Source: a virus (Duplodnaviria > Heunggongvirae > Uroviricota > Caudoviricetes). Taken from it: a stretch of DNA of 64,000 bases. This document shows positions 1 through 60,870 of this stretch, one piece after another. The stretch lies in IMG/VR virus record IMGVR_UViG_2675903313_000009, one strand, 5' to 3'. Both the position numbers and the translations under genes were made by a program. Below the pieces are notes generated by a model. It was given only the letters and a program-made list of their open reading frames with translations, made no database searches and was not told the DNA's origin. Every line of letters begins with the position of its first letter. The stretch's first letter is position 1.

Positions 1-3
1 GTC

Positions 4-711
4 TTGTCTGAAATGCCGAGAGCGACGAGAATTATCGCTCTCGGTGAGTTCTATTTTATCTCCCGAGGTTTCGATCTAATTCGATTTACCGAATACGAGC
101 TTGTTGATTCGGCCTATGAACGCTGTATTGTTGGCGAGTGTCTTGAGTCATGTGATCCTGATTACCAAGAGCAGGAAGTTAAGCGACTCAAACGTGCTGG
201 TTACACACCTCTTGAGATAGGAGCAGAAATTGAATCCTACAAGTTGCATGTGGGGCAGCCAGTCCAAACAGTCTTCCGCGTGGCCTACTGCGAGTTTCCA
301 ATCAAGGATAAATCTGGAGTAAAAGTCAGCGCCAAGCAGATTAGAGGGGTTTTTACTCATGCTGATTATATGGGATTAGGCATCGCAAGTTTTGCTTACC
401 TTTATCTCGTAGATAAGTATCAGTACTTGGTTTGCGATACGTTACAGACGGTAAAAGGCGCAACTCTTTGGGCTGTGAGTATGCGCAAACATGGACTGGT
501 CGAAATTTACGATACGAAGAACGAAAATTTTATAGAGGAATTGGGTGAGGATGCCTGTGGCGTAAGTGGTTTTATTCCGTGGGATATCGGTAAGTCTGAC
601 GGAGGCCAGATGCGAAGACGTGAAGAGTGGGGGACTAATAAAATCAATCTCACCCCAGGTGCTTGTACTCATATAGTGAACATTCTGACTAAACGATCTA
701 TGAATCAATAA
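4..711 (+). CDS. hypothetical protein; ORF reaches the window edge so the 5' end may be truncated
   Basis: 235-codon ORF on the dominant coding strand, immediately followed by an intrinsic terminator; no recognisable motif. Confidence 0.45.
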   Translation: MSEMPRATRIIALGEFYFISRGFDLIRFTEYELVDSAYERCIVGECLESCDPDYQEQEVKRLKRAGYTPLEIGAEIESYKLHVGQPVQTVFRVAYCEFPIKDKSGVKVSAKQIRGVFTHADYMGLGIASFAYLYLVDKYQYLVCDTLQTVKGATLWAVSMRKHGLVEIYDTKNENFIEELGEDACGVSGFIPWDIGKSDGGQMRRREEWGTNKINLTPGACTHIVNILTKRSMNQ

Positions 712-732
712 ACCCGCTACGGCGGGTTTTTT
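712..732 (+). terminator. rho-independent terminator
   Basis: stem acccgc/gcgggt with 4-nt loop followed by T6. Confidence 0.7.
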
Positions 733-812
733 GTTATTAAGCCCCCCCTATGTACCTATCATTAAACCTTTACACCGCAGCCGTAGGCATTTAGGCTATA
801 TCACATATAAGA

Positions 813-825
813 AAACAAGTTGTTT
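813..825. promoter_or_regulatory. O1 dyad motif AAACAA-N-TTGTTT upstream of parA (candidate operator)
   Basis: aaacaagttgttt about 35 bp upstream of the parA start; same dyad recurs at least 6 more times in the window. Confidence 0.45.
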
Positions 826-860
826 CAGACGATAATTATATACGCAAAGGGAACTCTCCA

Positions 861-1529
861 ATGACCAAGATCTTTGTGGTTGGCGGCACAAAGGGCGGGC
901 CTGGCAAATCCACCGTTGCCCAGCAAATTGCCGTTTGCCTGAAAGTCAAAAAGAAGAAGAAGGTTTATATTACCGATATAGATATTCAGCGCACGACAAC
1001 GAGCTGGTGTGAAGACCGTCGACAGAACGAAGACCTTGAGCTGATTCCTTTTGCATACGTTCAGGATGACATCATTAAGCACCTAAAATCGCTTCAGGGT
1101 AGAGCTGAGTTTGTAGTGGTAGATGCTGGTGGCTTCGACTCCGAAATTCAGCGACAAGCGATGCTGATGGCTGACGTTATCATTATCCCGCTGCGTCCTA
1201 AGCGTCGTGATTTGAAATCTTTACGTGACATCGATCCTATTATCGACAATGTTCGCAATGTAAACGATAAAGTGAAGGTCCGCGCGGTCATGAACCAGTG
1301 CCCGGCTTTGCCATCACAAGTGTCTCGCATTCTGGCGGCTAAAGAGATTGTTGAGACGTTTGGCATCGAGTCTGCGCCAGTCAATCTATATAACCGCAAC
1401 GTCTATGATGATGCGGAAGAGTCTGGTCGTTCTATCTTTGAAATGACCGGTAGCGAGCGCGACAAAAAGGCGGAAGCCGAGTTTGAAGAATTTGTAGATT
1501 ATCTGTTGAGTCTGGAGGAAGAAGAATAA
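861..1529 (+). CDS. parA: ParA/MinD-like partition ATPase
   Basis: deviant Walker A GGTKGGPGKST near N-terminus; about 220 aa; followed by small RHH-type partner with overlapping stop/start. Confidence 0.8.
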   Translation: MTKIFVVGGTKGGPGKSTVAQQIAVCLKVKKKKKVYITDIDIQRTTTSWCEDRRQNEDLELIPFAYVQDDIIKHLKSLQGRAEFVVVDAGGFDSEIQRQAMLMADVIIIPLRPKRRDLKSLRDIDPIIDNVRNVNDKVKVRAVMNQCPALPSQVSRILAAKEIVETFGIESAPVNLYNRNVYDDAEESGRSIFEMTGSERDKKAEAEFEEFVDYLLSLEEEE

Positions 1530-1888
1530 TGTCCATGAAAATGGGTGACCTAGCAAAGCGCAAAGAGCCTGATGCACCGGCTAAGAACACAACTCCTTTG
1601 CGCCAACCAGTCAGACCACAGGGACGCCCGACTCGTGGCAAAGAGAAAATTAAAAGCCGCACAATGTCACTGGAGGACGAATACTTCGAACTGCTGGAGA
1701 TGATGAAGTTCATCCCTCGCTTCGAGAAGTTCACTCGTTCTGACGTGATTCGTGCTGCTATTTTCCATCTTGCGGAGAAGACACCGCAGGAAATCGAGGA
1801 CATCGTGAAACTTAACGAGGCGATCACAGCTGCCGATGTCACGATGCGTACCGATGAAATCAAACGCGAGTTGATGAAGAAAGGTTAA
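1529..1888 (+). CDS. ribbon-helix-helix (ParG/CopG-like) DNA-binding partner of ParA
   Basis: 119 aa, basic disordered N-terminus then predicted beta-alpha-alpha segment (KSRTMSL...EDEYFELLEMMK...RSDVIRAAIFHL); start overlaps parA stop. Confidence 0.5.
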   Translation: MSMKMGDLAKRKEPDAPAKNTTPLRQPVRPQGRPTRGKEKIKSRTMSLEDEYFELLEMMKFIPRFEKFTRSDVIRAAIFHLAEKTPQEIEDIVKLNEAITAADVTMRTDEIKRELMKKG

Positions 1889-1893: not shown

Positions 1894-2652
1894 TTGAGGT
1901 GCTGCTTGGCACCTCTTTCTATAGGTTCCCTAATGCTCTACAAATATATTGGAAGTGAAGATTCGCAAAAAGTGTTACGTAACCTCAAACGGTTTGTAGA
2001 GGACGGCACTATCTCTGCTAGCGCACCTTCTTCATTCAACGACCCATCAGAGTTCAAAGTTTCGATAACGATGGGAGGTACAGAAGTGGAGCACCGGAAA
2101 CACTTTGAAGACAATGGATGTAAGGATTTTTCCTTTGAAGACTGGGATGCTGTAGCTCCTGAAGCTGCAAAATCGTTGGCTGTGGATTTGCGGAAAGAAT
2201 CATTAGGGGCTTTTGGTGTGGTGTGCTTGTCACCAAACGAAGATAACATCTTGATGTGGTCACATTACTCAGTGTCGCATAAAGGTTTCTGCATAGGCTT
2301 TGATGATGATTTTGTTACCTCTATTGAGGGGTATCACAGCTTTGATAATGTGAAATATATACCTTCTGTTCCCGTGTTCGATGAAGTTACAGATGAGTTT
2401 AAGGTACTTTTTGATAAGCTCTTTTTCTACAAGCACGAATGCTGGAAATATGAGGAAGAACAAAGGGTTATTACTAAAAAAATAGGCGCTCAGGCATTTG
2501 ATAAGAAATATATTAGAGAGATCATTCTTGGACATAACGTTTCTCCTGAAGTAGAAGAATATGCCCGGACACAGCTAGACACGAGCATCGAGGTTTACAA
2601 AATGAGTACACCTGATGATGGTTATCTTCTTGTCAAAGAAAAGCTGAAGTAG
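1894..2652 (+). CDS. hypothetical accessory protein (motifs reminiscent of DUF2971-type proteins; unverified); alternative ATG start at 1933
   Basis: ORF with lower GC than replication genes; motifs NDPSEF and LMWSHYSVSHKGFCIGF; TTG start at 1894 or ATG at 1933. Confidence 0.5.
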   Translation: MRCCLAPLSIGSLMLYKYIGSEDSQKVLRNLKRFVEDGTISASAPSSFNDPSEFKVSITMGGTEVEHRKHFEDNGCKDFSFEDWDAVAPEAAKSLAVDLRKESLGAFGVVCLSPNEDNILMWSHYSVSHKGFCIGFDDDFVTSIEGYHSFDNVKYIPSVPVFDEVTDEFKVLFDKLFFYKHECWKYEEEQRVITKKIGAQAFDKKYIREIILGHNVSPEVEEYARTQLDTSIEVYKMSTPDDGYLLVKEKLK

Positions 2653-2718
2653 CTCCAGACTTTCCTCAAATGATTATGTTGGGCGCTTTTCTTATTGAAC
2701 TGGTTAGTGAGGCTAATA

Positions 2719-3891
2719 ATGGATTTGTTCTCAACCAAAATAGCAAAAAACAAGCTGCACGAATCTTTTAAACAGATTTATCAAGATAATACATATGCTC
2801 CAGTAAGAGAAGTGATACAGTCGTGGGGGCGTGGGTTACTGGAGCGTAGCGGTGAGCAGACTAAATTCGTTAAAGAGTTTCAGACAACCTTCAATTCCGC
2901 CTTATGGGAATTGTATCTGAACGAAATGTTTATTCGTCTCGATTATTCTGTCGACTACACAAAAGACAGTCCCGATTTCTGTGTTACTACACCGTCAGGC
3001 TACCAGTTTAACGTCGAAGCTGTGATATCAGATCGGCCACATAATCCACCTGCAGGTGTTCTTTTTAGCGAATCAAAATTCAAACATCAATCAACGCTAA
3101 AATTAATCGGAAAAATCAAAGACAAACATGATCTTTTTACAGGAGTTAATGGCAAAAAATTCCCGTACTCTACGATGTCTCATGTAGTTAATAAGCCGTT
3201 TGTTCTGGCGCTTGCACCCTTTGACTCCGATTTATCATTGTCTCAAAATAACACAATCATCAATCGAGTGTTGTTTGGCATTGAGGAACCTACCACCAGA
3301 AATTTGGTGACTGGCAGCCAAACTAAAGTTACCTCAATCAAAAAGAATGAAGACGTTGAAATTCCATTAGGTATATTTACTAACGACTCATATAAAGAAA
3401 TAAGTGCGGTTATTTTCTCCACCACCGGCACTTTTGGAAAAGCCGTGGTTCAAAGCGGTATCGGTAGATATGTAAGGTCAACACGATATCGAGCCATTGA
3501 TGTGAATGATTTCATCGCCAATGAAGGGATGAAAAACGAGGGAAAGCACACACAAAGGATAGGACCTGATCATTTCATCACTACATATCGGCATTTTTTA
3601 AATAACGAAGTCACTGGTGCGGATATTGTAGTTTGTCATTCCACTGCTCATGAAGAGACGCACTTTGACGGCCTTCATATTTACTACAATCCTTTTGCGA
3701 CAGTGCCACTGGACAGAAATATTTTCTTCCCCCCAGAGATAACTCATAATTTTTACGATATGGAAAAAGAACAGTCTGTTCAGAATCATCCTGATGGAGC
3801 GCTGGTATCTAGACAGGTTTTTGAACCAACTAGAGCACATTTTAGGTATATCATGAAACATTGGTTTCCAGGCTTTCTAAAAGATGTTTAA
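2719..3891 (+). CDS. hypothetical accessory protein (ORF open from 2695)
   Basis: ATG at 2719 preceded by GAGG 7 nt upstream; AT-rich coding sequence; no recognisable catalytic motif. Confidence 0.5.
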   Translation: MDLFSTKIAKNKLHESFKQIYQDNTYAPVREVIQSWGRGLLERSGEQTKFVKEFQTTFNSALWELYLNEMFIRLDYSVDYTKDSPDFCVTTPSGYQFNVEAVISDRPHNPPAGVLFSESKFKHQSTLKLIGKIKDKHDLFTGVNGKKFPYSTMSHVVNKPFVLALAPFDSDLSLSQNNTIINRVLFGIEEPTTRNLVTGSQTKVTSIKKNEDVEIPLGIFTNDSYKEISAVIFSTTGTFGKAVVQSGIGRYVRSTRYRAIDVNDFIANEGMKNEGKHTQRIGPDHFITTYRHFLNNEVTGADIVVCHSTAHEETHFDGLHIYYNPFATVPLDRNIFFPPEITHNFYDMEKEQSVQNHPDGALVSRQVFEPTRAHFRYIMKHWFPGFLKDV

Positions 3892-4872: not shown

Positions 4873-6213
4873 ATGACCGAACTTTGCCATACAGGACGCG
4901 GGCTGTCCGAAGAGTTTGATGAAGATTTCCAGAACAGACTGACGGCATATTTTTGTCGTGATCACGAGTTTCTTACTCGTGCGGGAGATCTGGTTGTGCC
5001 TAGCCAATTTGCCAATGCGGCCAATGCCATATTGGTTAATATGGTTTCGGGCTATTACCGTATGTACAAGAGCGCGCCTTCTTCATCTGCGATTCTGGAT
5101 ATGCTTAAGCGCGCGAAACGCGATAAGACCATCCGTGAGGAACTCTTCCCGGATGTTGTTGCTGCGTTTAAGCGCATCCTTGCAGAAAAATTGTCTGATA
5201 CCACGTACATGGTTGACCAGGTATCCACATTCGCAAAAAGTGTAGCGTTTGATGATGCTCTGATTAAAGCTGCTGAACTGAAAGAGAAGGGCGACTTTCA
5301 GGGGGCGATGGCAATCATGGCCAAGGTTCAGCAGATAGGCTCGAACGAAGCGACCGGAATCTATGACTACTACACCTCCGCAAGTGAGCGATTGAAAGCG
5401 CGTGAATATGAGGCTTCAGAGGAGTATGTGCCAAACAGCATTACAACTGGACTCCCTCTGCTCGATAGGTTGCTGTACCAAAAAGGCTGGGCGAAGCGTG
5501 AAATGGTGCTCTTCATGGGGTTCGCTAAATCCGGCAAATCGACCGCAATGGGTGAGTTTTCCATAAACGCAACGCTTGCTGGCTACAATGTTCTGTATCT
5601 CTCGCTGGAGGTTCACACCACCATTTTATCCGACCGTTTTGATGCAAGATTGTCGGAGACAGAAATGTCCAAGCTGGTGGAACGGCGCGATGAGGTTCAT
5701 CGTAAGTTGGCAGAGTTGGGAGCCACGAAGGGGATTGGTAGTTTGTGGGTGGTTGAGCGTCCGTCAGGAAGTATGTCACCGGCAGATCTGGACCGTATGC
5801 TTAACAGCATGAAAGCCAACGGCATGGTGCCTGACATGGTTGTTGTCGACTACGCAGATTTGATGCGTGCCAGTTATGACCTTCGTGATGATCGCGCCAA
5901 CATTCGTAGTATCTACACCGATTTACGTGCTCTTTATGACAAGCATAACGTTGCTGGGATTACGGCATCGCAGACAAACCGTGAAGGTGGCGCGTCAGAA
6001 GTTGCCACAATGATGCACGCTGCCGACAACATCGAAAAAGTACGTATTGCTGACCTGGTAATAACGATCAACAAAACCGAAGAAGAAGAAGCGAAAGGAG
6101 AGGCTCGTCTCTACTTTGCTGGTTCACGTAACCAGCAGGGAGGGATCAGCATTCGCGTTAAACAAAACCTCGAACAAATGCGCTTCATTGAGCGAATCTT
6201 AGACGTTACCTAA
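4873..6213 (+). CDS. replicative DNA helicase (DnaB/T7 gp4-like RecA-fold)
   Basis: Walker A GFAKSGKST, Walker B MVVVDYADLM, arginine-finger-like TASQTNREG; conserved start context aaggaaagcacATG. Confidence 0.8.
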   Translation: MTELCHTGRGLSEEFDEDFQNRLTAYFCRDHEFLTRAGDLVVPSQFANAANAILVNMVSGYYRMYKSAPSSSAILDMLKRAKRDKTIREELFPDVVAAFKRILAEKLSDTTYMVDQVSTFAKSVAFDDALIKAAELKEKGDFQGAMAIMAKVQQIGSNEATGIYDYYTSASERLKAREYEASEEYVPNSITTGLPLLDRLLYQKGWAKREMVLFMGFAKSGKSTAMGEFSINATLAGYNVLYLSLEVHTTILSDRFDARLSETEMSKLVERRDEVHRKLAELGATKGIGSLWVVERPSGSMSPADLDRMLNSMKANGMVPDMVVVDYADLMRASYDLRDDRANIRSIYTDLRALYDKHNVAGITASQTNREGGASEVATMMHAADNIEKVRIADLVITINKTEEEEAKGEARLYFAGSRNQQGGISIRVKQNLEQMRFIERILDVT

Positions 6214-6294
6214 AAAATAAGCGTGGAGAACACCTCCACGCTTGATTCATTGGTGAAACAACTTTTCTTTTGCCAAACCACAAAAGAAAAACAC

Positions 6295-7476
6295 ATGAAC
6301 CTTTATATTATATCAACATTTAGGTTGGTCACAATATTGCCTATTAAAAGTGGAATTATCGTGAGCGAGCTGAAAGAGCTAATTACCGAATTAGATTTTG
6401 AACAATGGTTGGACACTGAAGGTATCGTTTATCGACGTGGAGGCGTGAGTGCTCGCGGTCGTGAAGTGAATATCAAGGAGTGTCCGGTATGTGGCAGCTC
6501 CAACTGGAAGGTATATTTCAATCTGACCAGTGGCGTCGGCAAATGCTTTGCTGGTGATCATCCCGAAGAGATTCAGTTCAATAAGCTGATCTTCCTCAAG
6601 CACTACAGCGGTAAATCACGACGACAGTTCGAGGAATATGTGCAGAACGCGCTGATCTCACAAGGATGGGCGCCGAAGAAGGAAGAGGTCGTGCTGGCCA
6701 GCAAGGTTGAACTCGAAGGGCCAGTAGCTCTCCCTCGACATTACGAACTCCCCATTGACGGTCGTCTTCCTGATTATCTGGTGGAGCGCCATATCTCCCC
6801 GGATCTGGCCAAATACTTTGATCTGCGTTACTGCGTCGAAGGCAAGCACGCATACGTCGATCCGTACACAGACCAGGTCAAAGGGCAGGTGTTTGATATG
6901 CGCATCCTGATACCGGTTTACGATCTGGATGGCGTGATGAAGACCTTCCAGGGGCGTGACATTACCGGTGCAGCAGAACGTCGCTACCTCTTTCCTATGC
7001 AGCTTCCAGCTTCAGGTAGGTTTCTCTACAACGGCCATAATGCAGTCGGCAAACAGACTGTAGTTGTCTGTGAGGGGGCGTTCGATGTTATGGGGGTCAA
7101 ACGAGCTATTTTTGACGAAGAAACATTACGTGATTACGTGGAACCAATAGGAACGTTCGGGATGCATCTATCTGGTAACACCACTCAGGATGCAGAAGAT
7201 CAGCTGGGCGCGTTCCTGACGCTCAAGGCGCGTGGGCTACGTAATGTGATTATGATGTGGGATAGTGAAAAGCAGGCTATACGCAACACTATGGCCGCAG
7301 CCAGGCGACTGAGCAGTATTGGTCTTAATGTGAAAATTGCATGTTTGGGCGAGGAAGGACTCGACCCCGGCGATGCGACCCCGGGGCAGATTATCAAAGC
7401 CTACTATTGCGCAAAACCTTACTCACGACAGCTTGAACTTTTAAGCAAGGTAAAAGGCATAGCTGCATTAGTTTGA
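6295..7476 (+). CDS. DNA primase (zinc ribbon plus TOPRIM-like); ORF open from 6223, alternative GTG start at 6361
   Basis: CPVCGSSNW...KCFAGDH zinc-binding motif, acidic VVVCEGAFDVMGV and MMWDSE segments; start context aaagaaaaacacATG. Confidence 0.6.
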   Translation: MNLYIISTFRLVTILPIKSGIIVSELKELITELDFEQWLDTEGIVYRRGGVSARGREVNIKECPVCGSSNWKVYFNLTSGVGKCFAGDHPEEIQFNKLIFLKHYSGKSRRQFEEYVQNALISQGWAPKKEEVVLASKVELEGPVALPRHYELPIDGRLPDYLVERHISPDLAKYFDLRYCVEGKHAYVDPYTDQVKGQVFDMRILIPVYDLDGVMKTFQGRDITGAAERRYLFPMQLPASGRFLYNGHNAVGKQTVVVCEGAFDVMGVKRAIFDEETLRDYVEPIGTFGMHLSGNTTQDAEDQLGAFLTLKARGLRNVIMMWDSEKQAIRNTMAAARRLSSIGLNVKIACLGEEGLDPGDATPGQIIKAYYCAKPYSRQLELLSKVKGIAALV

Positions 7477-8613
7477 ACCAGTATTAGTCACATACACATT
7501 GACCGAAAATGATTTAACTTCAGTATTGAAGTTGTCAGTCATTACCGCGAGGTAGGCATTTTTGGTATCTCTGAATTGCTTCAGGATGATTTGAACGTTA
7601 TCTGTGCAAACAAACGAGGTAGCCAGATTGCCTCCTTTCTCTGAAAAATCCTTCAGGAATGTGCAGTCAACTTTGCCATCATTAGCGGTGAAGGTAGCAT
7701 CATCACCCTGCCAGGTAAATGTAGCGTTAACGCCCTTATCAATGGATTTAGCAATAAGTCGCTGGGTGGCGGATTTTGTTTTGGCTTTGGAAGCCGGCGC
7801 TCGATATTTGCCGCTTTCTTTCAGTTCTGCAATGTAATCGCAGCCTCTTTTTTCTCCTTTATCGCAAGCAGTCTGATAAAGGTCGGCTGCTTTTTTATAG
7901 TCCTTTTTTACACCTTCCCCATTCTCATACATAATGCCAAGATTGGTTATGGCGTCGGCGTTTCCAAGTTCCGCTGCCTTTTTATACCACTTAACTGCTT
8001 CTGCATCATTGCGTTTAACGCCTAACCCATCATCGTATAGTATTCCTAATCCTATCATAGCTTCTGAACTGCCTTGGTCTGCCGCCTTTTTGTAATAAGT
8101 AAAAGCCTTTTTATAATTCTTTTTAACGCCTTTACCATATTGGTAATACGCCCCAAGAACTGAAGTTGCTTTAACATACCCGGCATCAGAGGCTAGTTTG
8201 AAGTATTTAATGGCGAGTGCATGATCTACTTTACCAAGCAACCCCTTTTGATAAATAGCACCAAGATTGTTGTAGGCTCTACCTTCACGAGCATCCCCCG
8301 CAAGTTTGTAGTACTCAACAGCTTTATTTAGGTCTTTATCTACACCCTCGCCAAATGTGTACATAACCCCAAGTGCATAATATGCTACTTTGTCTCCCTT
8401 TTCTGCAGCGAGATCAATCCACTTCTTGGCCTCAACTACATCCTTATCAAAACCATTGATACCATCAAAATAATTTGTCCCTAACTCACTTTGTGCTGCG
8501 GTATCCCCTGCGGTAGCGGCTTCTATCAGCGTTTGTTTATTGTCTGCGTTAACGAATCCAGAGCTAAAAAGCAAAGTTAATGCCAGCAACGATGAAGATT
8601 TTATGTATTTCAT
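7468..8613 (-). CDS. Sel1-repeat (TPR-like) secreted protein
   Basis: N-terminal signal peptide MKYIKSSSLLALTLLFSSGFVNA; about 7 repeats of G-x-G-V-x-K-D/N-x-x-K-A-x-x-W/Y-Y-K-x-A; opposite strand to neighbours. Confidence 0.8.
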   Translation of the reverse strand: MKYIKSSSLLALTLLFSSGFVNADNKQTLIEAATAGDTAAQSELGTNYFDGINGFDKDVVEAKKWIDLAAEKGDKVAYYALGVMYTFGEGVDKDLNKAVEYYKLAGDAREGRAYNNLGAIYQKGLLGKVDHALAIKYFKLASDAGYVKATSVLGAYYQYGKGVKKNYKKAFTYYKKAADQGSSEAMIGLGILYDDGLGVKRNDAEAVKWYKKAAELGNADAITNLGIMYENGEGVKKDYKKAADLYQTACDKGEKRGCDYIAELKESGKYRAPASKAKTKSATQRLIAKSIDKGVNATFTWQGDDATFTANDGKVDCTFLKDFSEKGGNLATSFVCTDNVQIILKQFRDTKNAYLAVMTDNFNTEVKSFSVNVYVTNTGSN

Positions 8614-8846
8614 ATTTTTTGTTCTGTTGATATAGGATGAACAGTTTAGACGCGGCAAGCGTCAAGTGTGCGAAAAAGGGTACTTAAATTTAGTTAATAT
8701 GTCAGCTTTGTTGATTTAGTTTATGGTCGGTAAAGTTACTAGGAAACTAATAACCATAAGAAATAGTACGCCATTTAATTATTGTGGCACTGCTCGTGTT
8801 TTGATTAACTAATACCTGCGATAAATATAAATAAAGGGAAGCCAAC

Positions 8847-9260
8847 ATGAGCAAAAATAAGCTGATTTTAACAGGAGCTTTATTGTCTTTGTTTGCTTTA
8901 GTGGGGTGTAAGCCTACAGACGAGAAGGCTATTGCTCTGGGCCAACAAGCAATTGCGGATGATATGAAAGATCCCACGTCGGTGATGTTTAGGAAAGATA
9001 AGTTTGTCAGGACTGATCATGACGATGGGAGTGTGACAGGCTTTGTGTGCGGAGAATTGAACGCCAAAAATGGCTTTGGTGCATACGTGGGCTATCACTC
9101 ATATGTTGTTGAACTCGAAATGAAGCCAAAGGGCATGTTTTCGAAAGGGGTGGTATACAAAATCCTATCGAAGTCGTTGGCACCTAATGATCCTCATGAC
9201 TTACAGCGTTATAAGCAGGTCTACAGAAAGATGTGCAACAGTGAGGCTGTAGCTCATTAA
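8847..9260 (+). CDS. lipoprotein (candidate superinfection-exclusion type)
   Basis: signal peptide with lipobox LVGC; 137 aa; divergent from the Sel1 gene. Confidence 0.65.
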   Translation: MSKNKLILTGALLSLFALVGCKPTDEKAIALGQQAIADDMKDPTSVMFRKDKFVRTDHDDGSVTGFVCGELNAKNGFGAYVGYHSYVVELEMKPKGMFSKGVVYKILSKSLAPNDPHDLQRYKQVYRKMCNSEAVAH

Positions 9261-9385
9261 TGGTGAATGCCGGGCAGACTATAAGCCCGGCATCTTCGTA
9301 TAGGGAACTATTGCGCCTAAAATGATAAGTAGATACATACTTAGTTTTTTGTAAGAATACTTTCATCTGTTAGCTAGGAGTTGGT

Positions 9386-50296: not shown

Positions 50297-50317
50297 TTTG
50301 TTCTGGCGTCTGTAATT

Positions 50318-50481: not shown

Positions 50482-50712
50482 ATGTCATACCCGACTAATG
50501 TCGTTGCGCTCGTAGAGAGCGATTTTCTGGCCCAGGCTCGTGAAATGATGAAAGATCGTGAGCAGGCTTTCAACTTGTACGAATGGGCAATTAAGTGCTT
50601 GCATCTTGGCGAGCATCGCGAACTTGTTGAACAGCTTTTAGGTGAGTTGATCAATGAGGTGTTTGCCTTGAATGTTCAACTACATGGTAGAGAAAATAAT
50701 CAATCACAATGA
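50482..50712 (+). CDS. hypothetical small protein
   Basis: 76 aa; start context aaggaaaccaacATG; ORF open from 50458. Confidence 0.45.
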   Translation: MSYPTNVVALVESDFLAQAREMMKDREQAFNLYEWAIKCLHLGEHRELVEQLLGELINEVFALNVQLHGRENNQSQ

Positions 50713-50719
50713 TAGATAA

Positions 50720-51290: not shown

Positions 51291-51294
51291 TTAT

Positions 51295-51885
51295 ATGACG
51301 ACGAAGACACCAGCCCGATCGCAAGCAAAAACTCGCAAAAAAGACAAAAACAAAAATTCTCCCCGCACCAATCCCACAACGCCTGTCGTAGAGTTCAATC
51401 CCCAGCTTAAAACCGTGAAAATCTTTAGTGATGGCTCTTGCCTTAAAAATCCGGGTGGCCCGGGCGGTTACGGTATCGTTCTCCAGTATCGTGGTGAGGA
51501 ACGCGAGTTCTCAGATGGTTTTCATAGCACCACCAATAACCGCATGGAGATGATGGGGGCACTTATCGGGCTGGAGCGTTTGAAATATCCATGCAACGTT
51601 ATTTTGCACTCTGATAGCCAGTATCTGAAAAACGGCATGACACAGTGGATGAAATGGTGGAAACGCAATGGATGGATGACTTCTGACAAAAAACCGGTAA
51701 AGAATGTTGATCTGTGGAAGCGTCTGGATGAGGCCGCAAGTCGACATAATGTTCGCTGGAAGTGGGTTAAAGGTCACGCCGGGCATCGTGAAAATGAAAT
51801 ATGTGATCGACTCGCGAAGATCGCAGCTTTTTCAGCAGCAGATATGCCTCACAAGAAAGATATTGGTTTTGTTTATAACAAATAG
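51295..51885 (+). CDS. rnhA: ribonuclease HI with basic N-terminal extension
   Basis: [38 protein letters not shown] parallel E. coli RNase HI; ORF open from 51211. Confidence 0.9.
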
Positions 51886-52033
51886 TAAGTAAGTGTTTAC
51901 CTATCATTTTAAATCATGTATCTTATCGGCGTCAGGATGACAATGTGTCGGTAAGACACAGTTCCAGGATGGAACGAGAAAGGCGGCTGGCAATCGCCAG
52001 CCGCAACTCTTTCTGACACTGGATGGAGTCCAC

Positions 52034-52528
52034 ATGGCACGTCAAACCTATTTCACTTCTGTAACTAAACGTCCTCGTTCTTTACGTCAAATTTTGGCCG
52101 AATTATTTAGCGGTCGTGTTATGTCACGTCTTGATGAACTAGAGACTACCGTTCGGTTGCTGAATGAACGTTTAGATAATCAAGCGTCAGTTGTTGCGAA
52201 CGTGGGGGCGATTGTTGCCTCTGGTTCTTCACGCGAAGCGAAAAGTACACGGCCTTTAGTGAAGGAGAAAAACAACAAGGACAGTTCGAATGGAAAATTT
52301 TCAAAGAAAGAGGCTGAAACCAATGGCCTACGTTCTCATTATAGTTTCACTGGCGACGGTAGCCGTTCCAGCCGGCCAGAGCCTTTTGATGCCGGGTTCA
52401 TCCATCACCACACCTCCGTCGACGACAATTACCACCACTCCAGTAGAGCGTCCTGTCACTCTGGATGGGATGACGGTGGATGCGATACCTCAAGTTCATC
52501 CGGTTACTCAGGATCATGCTGTGACTAA
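52034..52528 (+). CDS. hypothetical protein (3' part overlaps 52323-52541 in another frame; extent uncertain)
   Basis: N-terminal 95 residues look protein-like; C-terminal part low-complexity S/G/H/C-rich. Confidence 0.3.
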   Translation: MARQTYFTSVTKRPRSLRQILAELFSGRVMSRLDELETTVRLLNERLDNQASVVANVGAIVASGSSREAKSTRPLVKEKNNKDSSNGKFSKKEAETNGLRSHYSFTGDGSRSSRPEPFDAGFIHHHTSVDDNYHHSSRASCHSGWDDGGCDTSSSSGYSGSCCD

Positions 52529-52541
52529 GGCGGTTGTATGA
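52323..52541 (+). CDS. small membrane/secreted protein with Thr/Pro-rich linker
   Basis: ATG with agagg 9 nt upstream; hydrophobic N-terminus MAYVLIIVSLATVAVPA; ORF open from 52290. Confidence 0.35.
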   Translation: MAYVLIIVSLATVAVPAGQSLLMPGSSITTPPSTTITTTPVERPVTLDGMTVDAIPQVHPVTQDHAVTKAVV

Positions 52542-52726
52542 ACTGGTTTTCAAATCACTTTGGAAAAATTTGGCTGGCAATTCTTGCCCTCATGGCCGCC
52601 GGTTGGGTATCGAACATTATAAAACTTGTTTGCTCTGGCGATCTCCAGTTTCAGGCTGGCATGACCTTGGCTCGTGTAGTTGGGATTTTTGTTTTTCCAG
52701 TCGGTTCGGTACTTGGTTATTTCTGA
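52538..52726 (+). CDS. small two-TM membrane protein
   Basis: 62 aa, two hydrophobic helices; start overlaps the previous stop (ATGA). Confidence 0.4.
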   Translation: MNWFSNHFGKIWLAILALMAAGWVSNIIKLVCSGDLQFQAGMTLARVVGIFVFPVGSVLGYF

Positions 52727-52782
52727 CGGCTGTTAGTGCATATGCATTGACCATCTTTGCGTAAGCAATTTATGTAATTAGA

Positions 52783-52795
52783 AAACAACTTGTTT
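52783..52795. promoter_or_regulatory. O1 dyad motif (candidate operator) upstream of TerB-like gene
   Basis: agaaaacaacttgttttgac about 25 bp upstream of the ATG at 52820. Confidence 0.45.
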
Positions 52796-52819
52796 TGACA
52801 AATAATAAAAGGAAAACAC

Positions 52820-53245
52820 ATGTTAGGTTTCTTCAAAAAGAAAACTCGTAAAGCTGTTATCGAAGTCAAAAAAATGGAGAACCGTGATGCGGTTGAGGCC
52901 ACCGTGTGGGGCGCGTACATGATCTCCTATGCCGACGGCACATGTGACGCAAAAGAAATTGCCATTCTTGAGAAGACAATTGCAGCTCTGCCTGCGTTTT
53001 CTCCGTTTGCTGGTGAAATTGCCCAAATGAGCGCCAATATCCGTGCTCGTTACGAAGCGTCCCCTCGTTCTGCTAATGCACAGGCTATTCGTGAGCTGTC
53101 TGATATTGCGGGTACTCCAGAGGCGGTCGATGTTCTGTGTCTGTGCCTTGATATTGCCGATCAGGACGGCATTGGTGAACAAGAAGAGCAGGCACTGAAA
53201 AAGATCGCCCAGGCGCTTCAGTTGTCACTGGATGCTTATCTCTAA
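52820..53245 (+). CDS. TerB-like domain protein
   Basis: two ADG...E repeats (ISYADGTCDAKEIAILEK and DIADQDGIGEQEEQALKKIAQAL) typical of TerB-type domains; 141 aa. Confidence 0.5.
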   Translation: MLGFFKKKTRKAVIEVKKMENRDAVEATVWGAYMISYADGTCDAKEIAILEKTIAALPAFSPFAGEIAQMSANIRARYEASPRSANAQAIRELSDIAGTPEAVDVLCLCLDIADQDGIGEQEEQALKKIAQALQLSLDAYL

Positions 53246-53403
53246 TGCTTGAGAGATTCCGGCTTGTGATCGTCATTGCTCTTCTGGTGATGGCGGTGTT
53301 GGTGGATTTTACGGGAAAGATGATGTCTGTCATTTCTGATGGCGTCCTCATTGGTTTGGCGATCTACTTCGCTTATCCGTTAGTTCGTAAAGCAAAGTGT
53401 TAA
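53245..53403 (+). CDS. small membrane protein
   Basis: 52 aa hydrophobic ORF; ATG overlaps the TerB-like stop (TAATG); followed by a terminator. Confidence 0.4.
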   Translation: MLERFRLVIVIALLVMAVLVDFTGKMMSVISDGVLIGLAIYFAYPLVRKAKC

Positions 53404-53405
53404 TG

Positions 53406-53435
53406 ACAAGGGCCATTTGGCCCTTGTGTTTCGTT
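53406..53435 (+). terminator. rho-independent terminator
   Basis: stem acaagggcc/ggcccttgt followed by gtttcgtt. Confidence 0.65.
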
Positions 53436-53511
53436 GACCGAAATAGAGAGTTTGCACCTTTACGTTTAGCTTGCTCCCCTTTTATGCCACATCACAATAA
53501 AGCCAATAAGA

Positions 53512-53524
53512 AAACAACTTGTTT
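53512..53524. promoter_or_regulatory. O1 dyad motif (candidate operator)
   Basis: aagaaaacaacttgtttaag about 18 bp upstream of the ATG at 53543. Confidence 0.45.
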
Positions 53525-53542
53525 AAGCATTAAGGAAAACAC

Positions 53543-54109
53543 ATGTGCGAGAAATGCAAAGCAATAGCTGATGAACAAAACGCCCTATTCGAAGAAATGG
53601 ATGCTAATGAACTTGTCAAAATGTTAGGCATTGTTCGGGGAACAGAAGACGTTTCTATATTTGAGAGACTGTTTACAGTACTTAATTTTAATTCCACCTT
53701 TGAAGAGCCAACTCAGGTTGTAGCTTTGGCACACCATTTCGGTGTTCATTATCTTGCCGAAAAAGAGCGCGCTAATAAGTTGCAGGCGACTTTGGATATG
53801 GTGAGCGAGACTCAAGGAACCCATGACGGTAACAATAGTGAGACGATTATTGCCAGCAAAGATCGTGAAATTGCCGGACTTAAGTCTTCTCTAACGATGT
53901 TGATGTCTGCAATCAATCTTATGTCTTCTAAAGCGGGATATAAAATGCCATCACTAAACAGTGACGATCCAATGGCCGTTCGCCAGCTTTTGGGAGCAAT
54001 GGCCGACCAGCTTGATGATACGAAAAGTCGGCTTGAAGACATGATGCGGGAGCTTACGCATCGCCACGACTTGAATAAGCAACCGCACAAAACGCAATAC
54101 GCACTCTAA
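53543..54109 (+). CDS. hypothetical protein
   Basis: 188 aa; start context aaggaaaacacATG. Confidence 0.5.
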   Translation: MCEKCKAIADEQNALFEEMDANELVKMLGIVRGTEDVSIFERLFTVLNFNSTFEEPTQVVALAHHFGVHYLAEKERANKLQATLDMVSETQGTHDGNNSETIIASKDREIAGLKSSLTMLMSAINLMSSKAGYKMPSLNSDDPMAVRQLLGAMADQLDDTKSRLEDMMRELTHRHDLNKQPHKTQYAL

Positions 54110-54250
54110 TACTGCACCAGTCGACAGGGGGCGAAAGCCCCCATTTTTACGCCTTAAATCTGCTGTAACGCCTATGAATGCAGCTTTTATGCCTTTTCAA
54201 GTTTGCGATAATTACACCAATCAGAAAACAAATTATTTAATGGTGTAATT

Positions 54251-55936
54251 ATGAATACAGCCCTTTCCATCATCGACGATGCCAGCTCAAACACGGCTAT
54301 CGACTATCGTCAGGAAATGAATGTCATCCACGAAATCGTGGCCGAGTGCGAGAAAGAGATCGCCTTCATGTATCAGGTACACGACTTCGTTTATGGCGAC
54401 GAACGCCACAACATGATTAATCGCCTGCTGAGACTAAACCATCGACCAGATGAAGATCGCTCGCGTTTAAATCGAGGTTGGTTGGATAAAGTCGATCTGG
54501 AATGGGTGAAACAGAATATTTGGGCCGAGTACTGGAGGAAGGTCACGGACATGACTAACGTTTTGCTGATCATGCCAGCTTCCCGTCGAGATGAGTGGCG
54601 CGAGCAGTTTATAGAGGGCAAACAGGAAGTCATCAAAACTGACAGAACCGGCTACCAGATGAAGGTTAAAGAGTTCGTTGGTGTACCGGAGTTCAAAGCA
54701 GAAACGGTCATACCCACGATGCTTAATTTGCTGAATGACAGGCACAAATATCTCTCTGAGCGCGTGTATGGCTTGTTTAAGGCGCTGAGTCCTGCGCACA
54801 AGACAAATAAGACAAACGGTTTCAGCGAGCGTCTGATAATCGCTGACTGCATTTCTGATTTCTGGCGGGACAGCGTTAGCGTGAACTATCGCAAAGAGGA
54901 CTACATCGACGATCTGCGTGTCTTGCTTCATTTCTTCGCGCACAAAGAATTTATTACCATCAACCGCACTGCTGAGGTGCTATCAGCTGCGTATCGGGCA
55001 AACGACTGCCAGACCGGTGACTGGATGAACGTCGATGGAAATCTGATGCGCGTGAAGATGTTCAAGAACGGCAACGTTCACTTTGAAATACATCCTGACG
55101 TGGCCTGGAAGTTGAATGAGGTGCTGGCTTACAGTATGCCTGCTGCAATCCCCGCGCCATGCCGAACTGCGCCAAAAACACGGGCACCAAAGCAGTTCGG
55201 GTTAATCCAGAAGACGATCTCCGTGCCGGTTCGCACTGCGCTTCGTGACGGGCGATTGAGCAAAGACAAAGGCGTATGGTACTTCTCTGATTCAGCTCTC
55301 CAGAAGTCGCAGGTGGAAGAGCTTGAGCGCACACTGAGCTTCATTGGCGGCGTGCAGGAGAAAAAGCACTGGCAGTTCCCGTATGACATCGGCCATACGC
55401 TAAATACGATTGTGGCTACCGGTTTAATACCGGATACAAAATCACACCAGTTCTACCCTACCCCACGCTTGATTGCTGAGTACGTTGCAAGAGCCACTGA
55501 ATTGAAGCCTGGTGAGAAGCTGTTGGAGCCTCAAGCCGGACGTGGGGATCTTCTGGCCTATATAAACGCCGATCTGGAAGATGTTACCTGCATAGAAATC
55601 GCACCTCTCTTCGCTGATATCCTGCGTGGAAAAGGGTATACGAACACGATTTGCTGCGACTTCATAAAGTGGTCTGAGGACAACGCAGGTTATCAGTTCG
55701 ACAAAATCGTTATGAACCCGCCGTACTCGCTTGGTCGTCATAGAGAGCACACGCTGGCTGCGCTGGGGCATCTGAAAGTCGGCGGGCGTCTTGTAGCAGT
55801 ATTGCCGGGCACTGCGCCAATACTGGACTGGATGACGATGGATAATTACGTTTATGCCAGAGGGAAGTCGTTTACCAACGAGTTTGAAGACACAGGGATC
55901 ACAGTCAGCGTATACGTTTTCAAACGCGTTAAATGA
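54251..55936 (+). CDS. DNA N6-adenine methyltransferase fused to a large N-terminal domain of unknown function
   Basis: C-terminal region with FYPTPRLIAEYV, FxGxG-like LEPQAGRGDLL and catalytic NPPYS; about 400 aa of unassigned N-terminal sequence. Confidence 0.6.
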   Translation: MNTALSIIDDASSNTAIDYRQEMNVIHEIVAECEKEIAFMYQVHDFVYGDERHNMINRLLRLNHRPDEDRSRLNRGWLDKVDLEWVKQNIWAEYWRKVTDMTNVLLIMPASRRDEWREQFIEGKQEVIKTDRTGYQMKVKEFVGVPEFKAETVIPTMLNLLNDRHKYLSERVYGLFKALSPAHKTNKTNGFSERLIIADCISDFWRDSVSVNYRKEDYIDDLRVLLHFFAHKEFITINRTAEVLSAAYRANDCQTGDWMNVDGNLMRVKMFKNGNVHFEIHPDVAWKLNEVLAYSMPAAIPAPCRTAPKTRAPKQFGLIQKTISVPVRTALRDGRLSKDKGVWYFSDSALQKSQVEELERTLSFIGGVQEKKHWQFPYDIGHTLNTIVATGLIPDTKSHQFYPTPRLIAEYVARATELKPGEKLLEPQAGRGDLLAYINADLEDVTCIEIAPLFADILRGKGYTNTICCDFIKWSEDNAGYQFDKIVMNPPYSLGRHREHTLAALGHLKVGGRLVAVLPGTAPILDWMTMDNYVYARGKSFTNEFEDTGITVSVYVFKRVK

Positions 55937-58185: not shown

Positions 58186-58505
58186 CCACATCGCACTCTG
58201 CTATTACCCAAGAAAAAGCCTTCAACATACTCGAACGACTAGAGACGCTCGCTACGGAGGAGGATATATCCCCGGAGAAACTGGTTGAGTTCAGCCGTGT
58301 GATATTGCGTCGCAAGAACGATATGGAGCGGCTGACATCTGGCGCTCCATCCTTATCAGTCAGGCGAACACTTTGTTGCAGCTTCTGCAACAAATCCCAG
58401 TACGCCGTCAAAAAGTTAATTGCTGGGGACGCCGTTTTCATCTGCGACGAGTGTGTGGATGTGTGCAACAGAATTATCCGGGGAGAGAAAGAGGGATCAG
58501 CATGA
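58182..58505 (+). CDS. small protein with ClpX-type C4 zinc-finger domain
   Basis: [34 protein letters not shown] closely parallels the ClpX N-terminal zinc-binding domain ([34 protein letters not shown]). Confidence 0.75.
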
Positions 58506-59032
58506 AATTTTCCAAATTTTCTGAGTTGGTGAATCGTATTTTGTCCAACAACCACAGCCATCGTCGCGATATGGATGTAACGATCGTTGTTCATTCGCCT
58601 GGTCGCATCGGTTCAACACCATCAGTTGAGGTTCAGTCAATTCAGGCGGGTTTTGATTGGGATGCCGGGCAAGTGATGATTTTTCCAGCACAGCCACTGA
58701 CCACGCTAACACCAGAGCAGGTTGCTGATATCACTGATAGTGTGCGCAAAGGTCAGTCTTGGCACGCGTATCAGGAATACAAGAAGCATAAAGAGCAGTT
58801 GGAAAAATTGTCGATGGAGTTGGAAGCCGCTAAACAGCGGGAAAAAGATCTGTTTATGGAAAATGTTCGACTTAAGTCAGGTATAGCCGGTCTGATACAC
58901 CTCGGTATTCGATATGCGGATGTTGAGGTCATGAAAATTGCTGGAGATGCCCAGCTTTCTACTCCATGCACTGACAGCATCATAAACAGCATTGCAGCAG
59001 GCATTTTCACCAAAGAGGGGGCAGCACGATGA
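58502..59032 (+). CDS. hypothetical protein
   Basis: 176 aa; ATGA overlap with the preceding ORF; ORF open from 58373. Confidence 0.45.
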
Positions 59033-59214
59033 GAACACTAGAGGTTCGCGCTGAAGACGTAATCCCTGGTGATGTGCTCATAACATCTAAAGGTCAACAA
59101 TGTGCGGTTAAATCTTTTTGGATGGAAAATGACAAAGTGACTCTGTTCGGTACGGATGGTTCCGAAACTGATTATGACTACGACGAATTGCTTGTTGTTG
59201 AGAGAGCTGCCTAA
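59029..59214 (+). CDS. hypothetical small protein
   Basis: 61 aa; overlapping start/stop. Confidence 0.4.
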   Translation: MRTLEVRAEDVIPGDVLITSKGQQCAVKSFWMENDKVTLFGTDGSETDYDYDELLVVERAA

Positions 59215-59867
59215 TGACCACCGTTAACAATAAGAAATGCTACCCAAGCGAGAAATATCTTAATGAGCTGATCACCAACATTGAGTTTGCTGCAAGGGCA
59301 CCAGTTGAAGTCGTGAGAGCGATTGCAGCAGAGCTACAGAAGCACCGTAAGGCCTATGCCAATACAGCCGCATCTAAGGATGGTTGGATAAGCTGTAGTG
59401 AGCGAATGCCTGTAATTGGCGAGCTAAATTGGAGAACTAGTTTTCCTTTACTGGTTATGTGTGAGATCGGCGTTATACCTGCTTATTACGGCTTTGTGAG
59501 CGTTAATGGTGATAGGCATTATGGCTTTATGGAGAGTCTTAAATACGGAGACGATAACGGCAACCATCCTCAAACTAATGAATATGGTCTGATTAGCAAT
59601 GTCACACACTGGATGCCACTACCAGAACGCCGCAGGAGTCGAACAGTGAATAATGCAGAGTTATTTCAGAAAATATCGGCTCTCGCGACTGAATGCCACG
59701 CTATAGCATCTGAGCTTGATGTTGGCGATGAACGAACCGAGATGTTCGAAATATACAGTGTGCTGCGCAATCTCTGTCGGCGTGGCTACGCCACTCAAGT
59801 AGGGCGAATGACTAACCCACTACTCTCATCCTGTGATGAGGATGACTCGGATGAGGATGACGAATGA
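59214..59867 (+). CDS. hypothetical protein with acidic C-terminus
   Basis: 217-codon ORF in a tightly packed operon. Confidence 0.45.
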   Translation: MTTVNNKKCYPSEKYLNELITNIEFAARAPVEVVRAIAAELQKHRKAYANTAASKDGWISCSERMPVIGELNWRTSFPLLVMCEIGVIPAYYGFVSVNGDRHYGFMESLKYGDDNGNHPQTNEYGLISNVTHWMPLPERRRSRTVNNAELFQKISALATECHAIASELDVGDERTEMFEIYSVLRNLCRRGYATQVGRMTNPLLSSCDEDDSDEDDE

Positions 59868-60247
59868 TGCATAAATCAGTAGCCGGTGAGTTTCAGAAGG
59901 AAGTCGATAATACCACTGATCTATTGGACGATATTTTAAGCATTCTCGCGCTGCTTGAGGCTGGCGATTGGTCAGAACATTGCACTAAAACAGAGCTAGG
60001 CGGTCGGCTTGAAAGAGAGATTACACGACTGATTAGCGATGCCCAAAATGATTTGTCACCTGAGCATCTCCCCTGCGATGTAGTTCTTGTGCCAGGGATG
60101 AGGATACACGAAGGCGTCAGAACGAAAACATTATTAACCGCATTACAGAGAAGAGCCGAACTAAGCTCGCGGATAAAGTTGATGCCATCCAAAATATTTG
60201 ATGTCGTCAAATTTACGCCATCGCAACATACTGAGAGAGATAAATGA
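59864..60247 (+). CDS. hypothetical protein
   Basis: 127 aa; overlapping start/stop. Confidence 0.45.
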   Translation: MMHKSVAGEFQKEVDNTTDLLDDILSILALLEAGDWSEHCTKTELGGRLEREITRLISDAQNDLSPEHLPCDVVLVPGMRIHEGVRTKTLLTALQRRAELSSRIKLMPSKIFDVVKFTPSQHTERDK

Positions 60248-60870
60248 GCACGGTAGCGAAAGATCTCACAGAAGATATTCTCAATGAAATTATTGCTGGT
60301 GCAAATACCTCGCTTGAGCAACTTCTTGCGTTAGCACTGAGAGCCGAACGTCGAGACAGAAATCGTTTTTATGAGCGATTACCAGGGAAGCGACCAGATA
60401 GATCGGATGAAGAAGGTTGCGATATAGACTACATGGAGCCTTCAGAGATTTATCAACTTGGTAAAGATGACGGCTGGAACGCTTATCACGATGCTGTGAT
60501 GAAGTTGGATGAAAAAGTTAAACCTCTTTCTCGACCGGTAGATCACGGTTTCCGCGATAACTGCGAATGCTCTAGTTGCCAGACCACGGCCCGTATTTGT
60601 TCCGAATTGACAGATAAGTCCAGCCTAATCTACGAAGTTAATGTAGGCGGTAATACATGGGTCGAATGCACAAGAGCTGCATACGTAAGAGCAAAAGACA
60701 AGGGTGAATTAACCAGAGTTGTTACCCATCACCCAAATAATGAGCTTAAAGATCACCAGATTAGAGAACTGGTGAACGAGTTGCGGGATATTGCGGTTCA
60801 GTACCACGGAGCGCAGCAATTGCGGGAGAAAATTGCCAGAGCAGTGAACAACTCAGTCCGTAAAAAATAA
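60244..60870 (+). CDS. hypothetical protein (last phage-type ORF before the junction region)
   Basis: 208 aa; overlapping start with the previous ORF; followed by a hairpin lacking a T-run. Confidence 0.45.
   Translation: MSTVAKDLTEDILNEIIAGANTSLEQLLALALRAERRDRNRFYERLPGKRPDRSDEEGCDIDYMEPSEIYQLGKDDGWNAYHDAVMKLDEKVKPLSRPVDHGFRDNCECSSCQTTARICSELTDKSSLIYEVNVGGNTWVECTRAAYVRAKDKGELTRVVTHHPNNELKDHQIRELVNELRDIAVQYHGAQQLREKIARAVNNSVRKK

Follow-up and report, generated by a model that had tools for sequence, protein, structure and literature searches.

A 64-kb stretch of a probable SSU5-supergroup phage-plasmid with apbC and metG as plasmid-borne cargo

The apbC–metG end of the window

The DNA analysed here, referred to below as the window, is a 64,000-nucleotide stretch of the virus record IMGVR_UViG_2675903313_000009 (Caudoviricetes). 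According to the listing of open reading frames (ORFs), ARAGORN and base composition, it contains about 70 genes, which are mostly located on the plus strand, and has a GC content of 42–50%. These include genes for plasmid replication and partition, phage-type DNA replication, nucleotide supply and tRNAs. The right end of the window is occupied by humD, apbC and the 5' part of metG, the gene for methionine-tRNA ligase (Table 1). In a preliminary description of this DNA, the latter two were taken for core chromosomal genes abutted by a phage-plasmid. The window very probably represents a contiguous 64-kb stretch, corresponding to about 60%, of an extrachromosomal phage-plasmid of the SSU5 supergroup from Escherichia/Shigella, and apbC–metG is known cargo of this plasmid family, not a junction with the chromosome.

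Plasmid relatives were searched for by megablast against PLSDB. They are circular, non-mobilizable molecules of 105–127 kb from E. coli, Shigella and E. albertii, with which the window is collinear at 97–99.8% identity. Positions 1–25,000 of the window share 99.7% identity with pA98_p4 (CP142588.1) over 94% of their length; coverage of this part reaches at least 80% in 66 plasmids. Positions 39,001–64,000 are covered to at least 80% by 121 plasmids, at 97–99% identity. In total, E. coli phage-plasmids match 86–99% of these two searched stretches at 97–99.7%. The best phage records are the Escherichia phages CMS-2020a, Cyrano and PhiR41_1 (96–97% identity), followed by Salmonella phage SSU5 (81%). 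The latter covers 51% of positions 1–25 kb at 81% identity, and 18.7 kb of the window match SSU5 positions 60–103 kb by megablast. These plasmid and phage matches place the element in the SSU5 supergroup and agree well with the preliminary description, in which an SSU5/pHCM2-type phage-plasmid had been proposed. Its close relatives are pLF82/phage Cyrano, pECOH89, pTW10722_119 and the pWPMR2-like plasmids. The element is thus a typical member of a well-populated and already described family.

The plasmid character extends through the right end of the window. The last 8 kb are fully matched by plasmid records, such as pTW10722_119 (NZ_CP035843.1; 99.8% identity over 56–64 kb), and 81 genomes reach at least 80% coverage, whereas chromosomes match this part only partially, at 80–90%. 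In E. coli chromosomes, the homology is confined to about 3.29 kb, from the apbC stop codon to the metG stop codon. The apbC gene of the window shares 99.4–100% identity with plasmid copies versus 82% with the chromosomal gene of E. coli K-12, and apbC together with the intergenic region displays no differences from pTW10722_119 in 1,258 positions. The native neighbour of apbC, yehE, is not found at this locus; humD and a terminator are present there instead, as in the plasmids. In the circle of pAVS0223-B, apbC and metG have an S24 peptidase gene on one side and further plasmid genes on the other. The humD–apbC–metG segment also occurs in the genomes of phages Cyrano, PhiR41_1 and CMS-2020a, at 97–99% identity, and is missing from the SSU5 genome. 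The number of PLSDB plasmids carrying the cargo is 208. Neither insertion sequence (IS) elements nor attachment (att)-like direct repeats, inverted repeats or a tRNA junction were found in the flanks of the 3.3-kb block.

A survey of 5,426 complete E. coli genomes revealed the backbone dnaE gene in 244 genomes at 250 places, all 250 of which are on plasmids. The junction composed of apbC, the intergenic region and metG was detected in 219 genomes and, among the matches listed, was always located on plasmids of about 105–115 kb. Judging from these two numbers, about 90% of the E. coli members of the family carry the cargo.

Accordingly, the genes regarded as core chromosomal are a plasmid-borne paralogous pair, and the proposal of a phage-plasmid captured in a chromosome, or of a chimeric contig, does not hold, since the same arrangement is present in more than 200 circular plasmids and in phages. 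An ordinary prophage inserted at a tRNA att site, which had been named as a possible refutation, is at variance with the structure of the flanks. The boundary drawn at position 60,870 also has to be given up: phage-plasmid DNA runs on through the P1-like lxr/humD genes at 61.4–62.06 kb and, in the relatives, beyond metG. Upstream of lxr/humD, a non-coding stretch of about 600 nt (60870–61460) contains AGTCGCCAGATACTTAYGGC twice, at 61087 and 61260, together with a pair of hairpin terminators.

Divergence, recombination and role of the cargo

The two cargo genes differ in their distance from E. coli K-12. Plasmid metG shares 94.2% nucleotide and 98.8% amino acid identity with the K-12 gene, with a synonymous divergence (dS) of 0.29; the corresponding values for apbC are 82%, 94.8% and 1.56. 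The ratio of nonsynonymous to synonymous divergence (dN/dS) is 0.02 in both cases. For metG, this is as far as K-12 is from another Escherichia species (E1V33; dS 0.28), while plasmid apbC is about as distant from Escherichia as from Citrobacter. Between chromosomes, apbC evolves only about 1.5–2 times faster than metG at synonymous sites (dS 0.58 versus 0.28 for K-12/E1V33 and 1.34 versus 0.91 for K-12/Salmonella), so the five-fold gap observed in the plasmids is not a rate effect. Sliding-window analysis locates the break in divergence at the start codon of metG. The intergenic region of 157 bp is likewise foreign: it differs from K-12 by about 30%, and its best match (about 78%) is in the Citrobacter freundii complex.

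Within a set of 11 plasmid alleles, the mean pairwise difference increases from 0.35% in the intergenic region to 1.75% in apbC and 4.1% in metG (246 polymorphic sites). Several metG alleles are mosaic. Namely, the allele of Shigella sonnei plasmid pAUSMDU00010534_01 differs from K-12 by 0–0.5% over nt ~400–800, where other plasmid alleles differ by 5–9%, and that of pYLPM7a by 0.5–2.5% over nt ~700–1500. A permutation test of the pairwise homoplasy index (PHI) type was significant for metG (p=0.0005) but not for apbC (p=0.57). The metG part in the window shows 12 differences from pTW10722_119 in 644 nt, after none in the preceding 1,258 nt. Its first ~430 nt are of the plasmid type, while nt 536–642 are identical to K-12.

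The MetG proteins of 11 relatives are all 677 amino acids long and contain the HIGH and KMSKS motifs; the 5' part present in the window encodes the HIGH motif and is 96–98% identical to plasmid alleles. Mutations causing loss of function or tolerance were considered and rejected, since the near-fixed residues that differ from K-12 represent the enterobacterial consensus. From its sequence, plasmid MetG looks like a normal, active methionyl-tRNA synthetase (MetRS), and the effect of the additional metG would most simply be one of gene dosage and regulation.

No close donor of the cargo was found by a scan with one genome per species or by local BLAST against 81 chromosomal loci: the best matches were about 82% for apbC (Escherichia and Citrobacter being equivalent) and 94% for metG (E. 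coli). An apparent 99% MetG match in Enterobacter hormaechei B56 was dismissed as a donor, being merely a K-12-identical allele. The metG of this chromosome record (CP170191.1) shares 100% nucleotide identity with that of E. coli K-12/DH5alpha, which suggests that this entry of the species-representative collection is mislabelled or contaminated.

On these sequence comparisons, the cargo appears as a mosaic of an anciently diverged apbC with its promoter region and an Escherichia-like metG with recurrent conversion tracts. We tentatively propose, with slightly less than even confidence, that plasmid metG is an active recombination interface with the host chromosome that samples host alleles, that apbC and the promoter region record an older capture from an unsampled enterobacterial donor, and that transient integration of the Hfr (high frequency of recombination) type may occur. 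The mosaic history and the ongoing conversion of metG are a modest addition to what has been published on phage-plasmid metG, and may or may not be contained in the primary paper on this gene.

Integration of the phage-plasmid beside a native chromosomal apbC–metG pair, by site-specific recombination or by illegitimate capture, would be in line with the tyrosine recombinase encoded by the element and with the conservation of this gene pair in chromosomes of Enterobacteriaceae. However, apbC and the intergenic region are of the plasmid type (0/1,258 differences from pTW10722_119, 18% from K-12), yehE is replaced by the P1-like humD and the terminator as in all plasmids, att-like repeats are missing, and 0/250 backbone copies are chromosomal. 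We consider this explanation extremely improbable and, for a junction at 60.9–62.1 kb, refuted. An assembly chimera, in which a plasmid contig is misjoined to a chromosomal contig at about 61–62 kb, has nothing specific in its favour, although metG copies with 94–100% local identity could in principle confuse short-read assemblers. It is practically impossible given that the same succession of humD, terminator, apbC, intergenic region and metG is shared by phage genomes and by more than 200 complete circular plasmids that were assembled independently, and that the supposedly chromosomal side is a plasmid allele; a chimera at this join is likewise refuted. A third possibility is a single Hfr-like crossover in metG downstream of the window end, which would leave the window plasmid-type in sequence yet physically part of a chromosome. 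Plasmid and chromosomal metG share tracts with 0–0.5% divergence and demonstrably exchange sequence, and the window ends with ~107 nt that equal the K-12 allele. Still, backbone copies in chromosomes are absent from the 5,426 complete genomes, the same K-12-like tract is present in two bona fide circular plasmids, and conversion tracts need no stable integration, which together make such a crossover very improbable. Some points nonetheless weigh against an extrachromosomal SSU5-type element as described here. Apart from the K-12-type end of the window, these are that the physical state of this particular molecule is not readable from a 64-kb window ending 644 nt into metG; that no record is identical to the window, the best reaching 99.7–99.8%, and an exact 110-nt search of IMG/VR gave no match; that roles were assigned by inference to the recombinase, the repressor and the ParA partner; and that the function of the cargo is known from citations of Tam et al. 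and from one transcriptome table.

A different question is what purpose the cargo serves. Phage-plasmid-borne metG has already been published (pWPMR2; Tam et al., medRxiv 10.1101/2024.10.27.24316207), and two sources citing that work link it to antimicrobial survival, by tolerance or persistence (PMC12452169; bioRxiv 10.1101/2025.09.12.675607). As summarised in the former, expression of plasmid metG yields a subpopulation predisposed to acquire cephalosporin resistance. Tam et al. are also cited as describing 'highly variable copies of metG'. In Cyrano, the gene CYRAN_99, annotated as a 'septum site-determining protein', is listed as a moron whose expression in lysogeny exceeds the background 9-fold (PMC9928086). 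It probably encodes the ApbC homologue, since the part of the Cyrano record that matches apbC bears the same product name. Alternatively, the cargo could serve the lytic cycle and not lysogenic conversion, by providing auxiliary translation and iron–sulphur (Fe-S) supply beside the tRNAs and the iron-dependent NrdAB. Its neighbours are early genes and genes of DNA metabolism, most of which have the same orientation, the element already possesses tRNAs and NrdAB, and the ~90% conservation of the cargo in the family together with a dN/dS of 0.02 indicates selection on the element itself. On the other hand, the probable apbC homologue CYRAN_99 is expressed in uninduced lysogens (PMC9928086), the published phenotype, according to PMC12452169, is survival of the host under antimicrobials, and SSU5 and relatives from Klebsiella manage without the cargo. 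A purely lytic role thus appears unlikely; the two roles are, however, not mutually exclusive.

A gene for a housekeeping aminoacyl-tRNA synthetase, when located at the border of a mobile element, is not a marker of the chromosome, which corrects a tempting annotation error. Where two metG copies agree locally to 94–100%, assembly can go astray, and so can the sorting of contigs into plasmid and chromosome. The published link between phage-plasmid metG and antimicrobial survival in epidemic S. sonnei lends clinical relevance to this cargo. The mosaic metG alleles suggest that plasmid and chromosome continue to exchange sequence in an essential gene. If this is true, phage infection would be a route by which metG variants, including those conferring tolerance, spread between strains.

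Gene content and edges of the window

The features identified in the window are listed in Table 1.

Table 1. Features of the 64-kb window and the evidence for their assignment
Feature	Positions	Strand	Evidence and remarks
ParA-type Walker ATPase (partition)	861–1529	+	Pfam MipZ/AAA_31/CbiA/ParA; 'AAA family ATPase' in annotation of relatives
Small ParA partner, putative ParG-like centromere-binding protein	1529–1888	+	phrog_5111 (unknown function)
Accessory defence island: PDC-S31 candidate (DUF2971) and PD-T7-5	1894–3891	+	PADLOC, E=4e-38 and E=2e-139
DnaB-like helicase	4873–6213	+	Pfam DnaB_C
Toprim primase	6223–7476	+	Pfam Toprim_2/DNAG_N
ATP-dependent DNA ligase	10697–12019	+	Pfam DNA_ligase_A_M
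tRNA array: Asn(GTT), Tyr(GTA), Thr(TGT), Ser(TGA)	13609–14132	+	ARAGORN; Rfam
Tyrosine recombinase	16218–17321	+	Pfam
Helix-turn-helix (HTH) regulator, putative lysogeny repressor	17316–17702	-	Weak Pfam HTH_19 match; convergent with the recombinase gene
CobT-like/von Willebrand factor A (VWA) protein and AAA ATPase pair	18264–21703	+	Annotation of 97–99% identical relatives
DNA polymerase III alpha (DnaE)	21884–25402	+	Pfam PHP, DNA_pol3_alpha, finger, HHH_6
Single-stranded DNA-binding protein (SSB)-like protein, 5'-3' exonuclease, RecA/UvsX-like recombinase	26077–29452	+	PHROGs; annotation
repA, Rep3 family	32770–33825	-	Pfam
SbcD-like metallophosphoesterase and SbcC-like AAA ATPase	35536–38797	+	Annotation; generic SMC-type PADLOC matches
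Nucleotide-supply module: NrdA, NrdB, pyrophosphohydrolase, ThyA, DfrA51-like dihydrofolate reductase (DHFR)	40183–46857	+	Annotation of relatives; PHROGs
3'-5' exonuclease, N6-adenine methyltransferase, RNase HI, TerB-like protein, DUF4942 methyltransferase	47992–55936	+	Annotation of relatives; PADLOC methyltransferase matches
P1-like lxr/humD module	61420–62061	+	82–85% identity to P1, P7 and D6
LexA box CTGTATGTGTATACAG	61638–61653		Perfect; 18 nt upstream of humD
HumD, S24 peptidase	61672–62061	+	Pfam Peptidase_S24
GC-rich hairpin terminator	62073–62093		Between convergent humD and apbC
apbC (mrp), plasmid-borne, intact, 366 aa	62099–63199	-	Pfam PF10609, E=2e-102; Walker A and CxxC visible in alignment
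Divergent promoter region, 157 bp	63200–63356		Specific to the phage-plasmid copy
metG, 5' 644 nt (214 codons; methionine-tRNA ligase)	63357–64000	+	Pfam tRNA-synt_1g, E=1e-87; cut by window end

Plasmid replication and partition functions are represented by ParA and by a Rep3-type RepA with 16 copies of the iteron ACCGCTGRCAGCATA, 12 of which are located downstream of repA (32238–32769) and four upstream (33885–33985). Only 0.23 copies are expected by chance, and none of 100 shuffled sequences reached 16. The iteron-RepA replicon of the preliminary description is thereby confirmed, and iteron-mediated copy control may be supposed by analogy with P1 and F. The replicon module (32189–33997) is of a swapped type: the RepA of the window shares only 50% amino acid identity with that of pAVS0223-B, while the flanking backbone is 97–99% identical. 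SSU5-like family members are typed in PLSDB as rep_cluster_488 or IncFIB.

The partition system had been described as a pair of ParA and a ribbon-helix-helix (RHH) protein. The ParA ATPase was verified by Pfam. For its small partner, neither a Pfam match nor a sequence match in the PDB was found, and a single-sequence AlphaFold2 model was weak (pLDDT 64), with a basic disordered tail followed by helices. The helix pattern in this model is compatible with an RHH fold, which is thus conceivable but unproven.

The tyrosine recombinase and the convergent HTH regulator, suggested previously as a lysogeny-type module, are both present according to Pfam. The HTH protein may act as the lysogeny repressor; in Cyrano, lysogenic expression has been described for a 'putative repressor', CYRAN_45 (PMC9928086). 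The recombinase would be a dimer resolvase and not an integrase, which is consistent with 0/250 chromosomal backbone copies. A second perfect match to the LexA-box consensus, CTGTTTACTTATACAG, lies at 16174–16189, 28 nt upstream of the recombinase start. Two perfect boxes in 64 kb, versus 0.91 expected, are not above chance overall. Their positions directly before the starts of humD and the recombinase gene are suggestive; LexA would be expected to control humD and possibly also the recombinase.

Genes for a phage replisome and phage tRNAs were correctly recognized in the preliminary description: the DnaB-like helicase, primase, ligase and DnaE were identified by Pfam, and four tRNAs by ARAGORN and Rfam. 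A RuvC-like protein is also encoded in the window, according to PHROGs. The RecA/UvsX-like recombinase (28379–29452) is free of inteins. In contrast, the allele of pAVS0223-B carries a 422-aa LAGLIDADG intein in the P-loop (GPPSAGK/C…), with exteins otherwise 100% identical to the window. The tRNAs are the sole matches of the Rfam scan. Among them, tRNA-Ser(TGA) (14045–14132) obtained a marginal tRNA-Sec score of 47.3 bits against a threshold of 47, and was called Ser by ARAGORN; the tRNA-Sec score is probably an artefact of the long variable arm. The DHFR (46381–46857) shares 89% amino acid identity with DfrA51 of SSU5, and its homologue in pAVS0223-B is annotated as DfrA51. Expression of the SSU5 enzyme raises the minimal inhibitory concentration of trimethoprim (PMC12217456).

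Several accessory loci vary between relatives. The defence island lies between the partition and helicase genes, and is missing from pAVS0223-B, which has a GIY-YIG gene instead. The replication module is interrupted by an oppositely oriented gene (7468–8658, minus strand) for a Sel1-repeat, tetratricopeptide repeat (TPR)-like protein with six repeats (E=1e-54). There is no megablast match in pAVS0223-B over positions 7452–9324 of the window and no Sel1-repeat gene annotated, while pA98_p4 has one. Beside the tRNA array, a minus-strand ORF of 420 amino acids (14308–15759; GC content 36%) belongs to phrog_18168 and has no Pfam or PADLOC match. The corresponding position at 14.3–15.8 kb is occupied by an AbiGi-family antitoxin gene and a hypothetical ORF in pA98_p4, and by a Gp49-family gene in pAVS0223-B. 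This is probably a variable hotspot, and the ORF an uncharacterised defence or accessory gene.

None of the 30 hypothetical ORFs of the window that were scanned against the PHROGs categories was assigned to virion or lysis functions, in agreement with the preliminary description. In collinear relatives, the siphovirus virion module lies just beyond both ends of the window. Namely, in pAVS0223-B (108,564 bp, circular), apbC–metG is followed by small hypothetical genes and by genes for a DEAD helicase, ParB proteins, terminase, portal, capsid, tape measure and tail fibre, and in pA98_p4 tail-fibre genes are located directly upstream of position 1 of the window. The lack of virion genes is thus probably explained by where the window was cut. 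Out of the two options considered earlier, an element larger than the window is supported by these complete relatives.

Proposed life cycle and closest known systems

The life cycle outlined here is deduced by analogy and from the relatives of the element. In lysogeny, it would replicate as a low-copy circle, with the Rep3-type RepA binding the iterons on both sides of repA, and would be partitioned by ParA and its small DNA-binding partner. Dimers would probably be resolved by the tyrosine recombinase, and quiescence would be maintained by the HTH repressor. DNA damage would lead to induction and to a lytic cycle served by the replisome, nucleotide-supply genes and tRNAs of the element itself. 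The relative Cyrano (pLF82) is present at 5.5 copies per chromosome, makes virions and shows 39-fold induction by ciprofloxacin (PMC9928086). The 3.3-kb apbC–metG block was probably captured long ago from an enterobacterial chromosome, with both genes kept intact under strong purifying selection. The plasmid-specific intergenic promoter region would drive both apbC and metG, so that the lysogen would gain extra doses of MetRS and of the Fe-S carrier ApbC. Recombination with the host chromosomal gene would continue in metG, apbC being too diverged for that.

P1 has the same lifestyle as that proposed for the present element, and its lxr/humD genes with the LexA box are 82–85% identical. The arrangement of repA and its flanking iterons in the window resembles the oriR/incA layout of P1. 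Otherwise, no homology to the P1 backbone was detected: P1, P7 and D6 match only the lxr/humD module of about 640 bp, and the virion, replisome and partition genes of P1 differ from those of the window and its relatives. SSU5, which together with pHCM2 is a founding member of the group, is syntenic with the window and shares about 81% DNA identity over the replication and nucleotide modules (DnaE, helicase, ligase, NrdAB, ThyA, DfrA51 and methyltransferases). Its accessory region downstream of the DUF4942 methyltransferase gene is different.

Among phages, Cyrano (pLF82, OV696614) and PhiR41_1 (PV340561) match, respectively, 73% and 60% of positions 1–25 kb at 96% identity, and the humD–apbC–metG segment at 97–98%. 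They differ from the window in accessory hotspots (toxin–antitoxin, defence and the region beside the tRNAs) and in the metG allele. Cyrano is a proven virion-forming, ciprofloxacin-inducible phage-plasmid (PMC9928086). The closest records, pTW10722_119 and pA98_p4, carry IS66 or IS91 insertions.

The pWPMR2-like plasmids of S. sonnei and E. coli combine an SSU5-type backbone with a second, plasmid-borne metG, as in the window. According to a large survey (bioRxiv 10.1101/2025.09.12.675607), they occur in S. sonnei and in E. coli clonal complexes (CC) CC131, CC23 and CC73. The S. sonnei plasmids NZ_CP099775.1, NZ_CP034066.1 and NZ_CP045933.1 share 97.7–99.8% identity with the window or its cargo. 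The survey reports that no defence systems were detected in clade K, which includes the pWPMR2-like plasmids, and that clade J contains PD-T7-5. By this description, the window is set apart from clade K by its PD-T7-5/PDC-S31 island and is therefore probably a clade-J-type relative.

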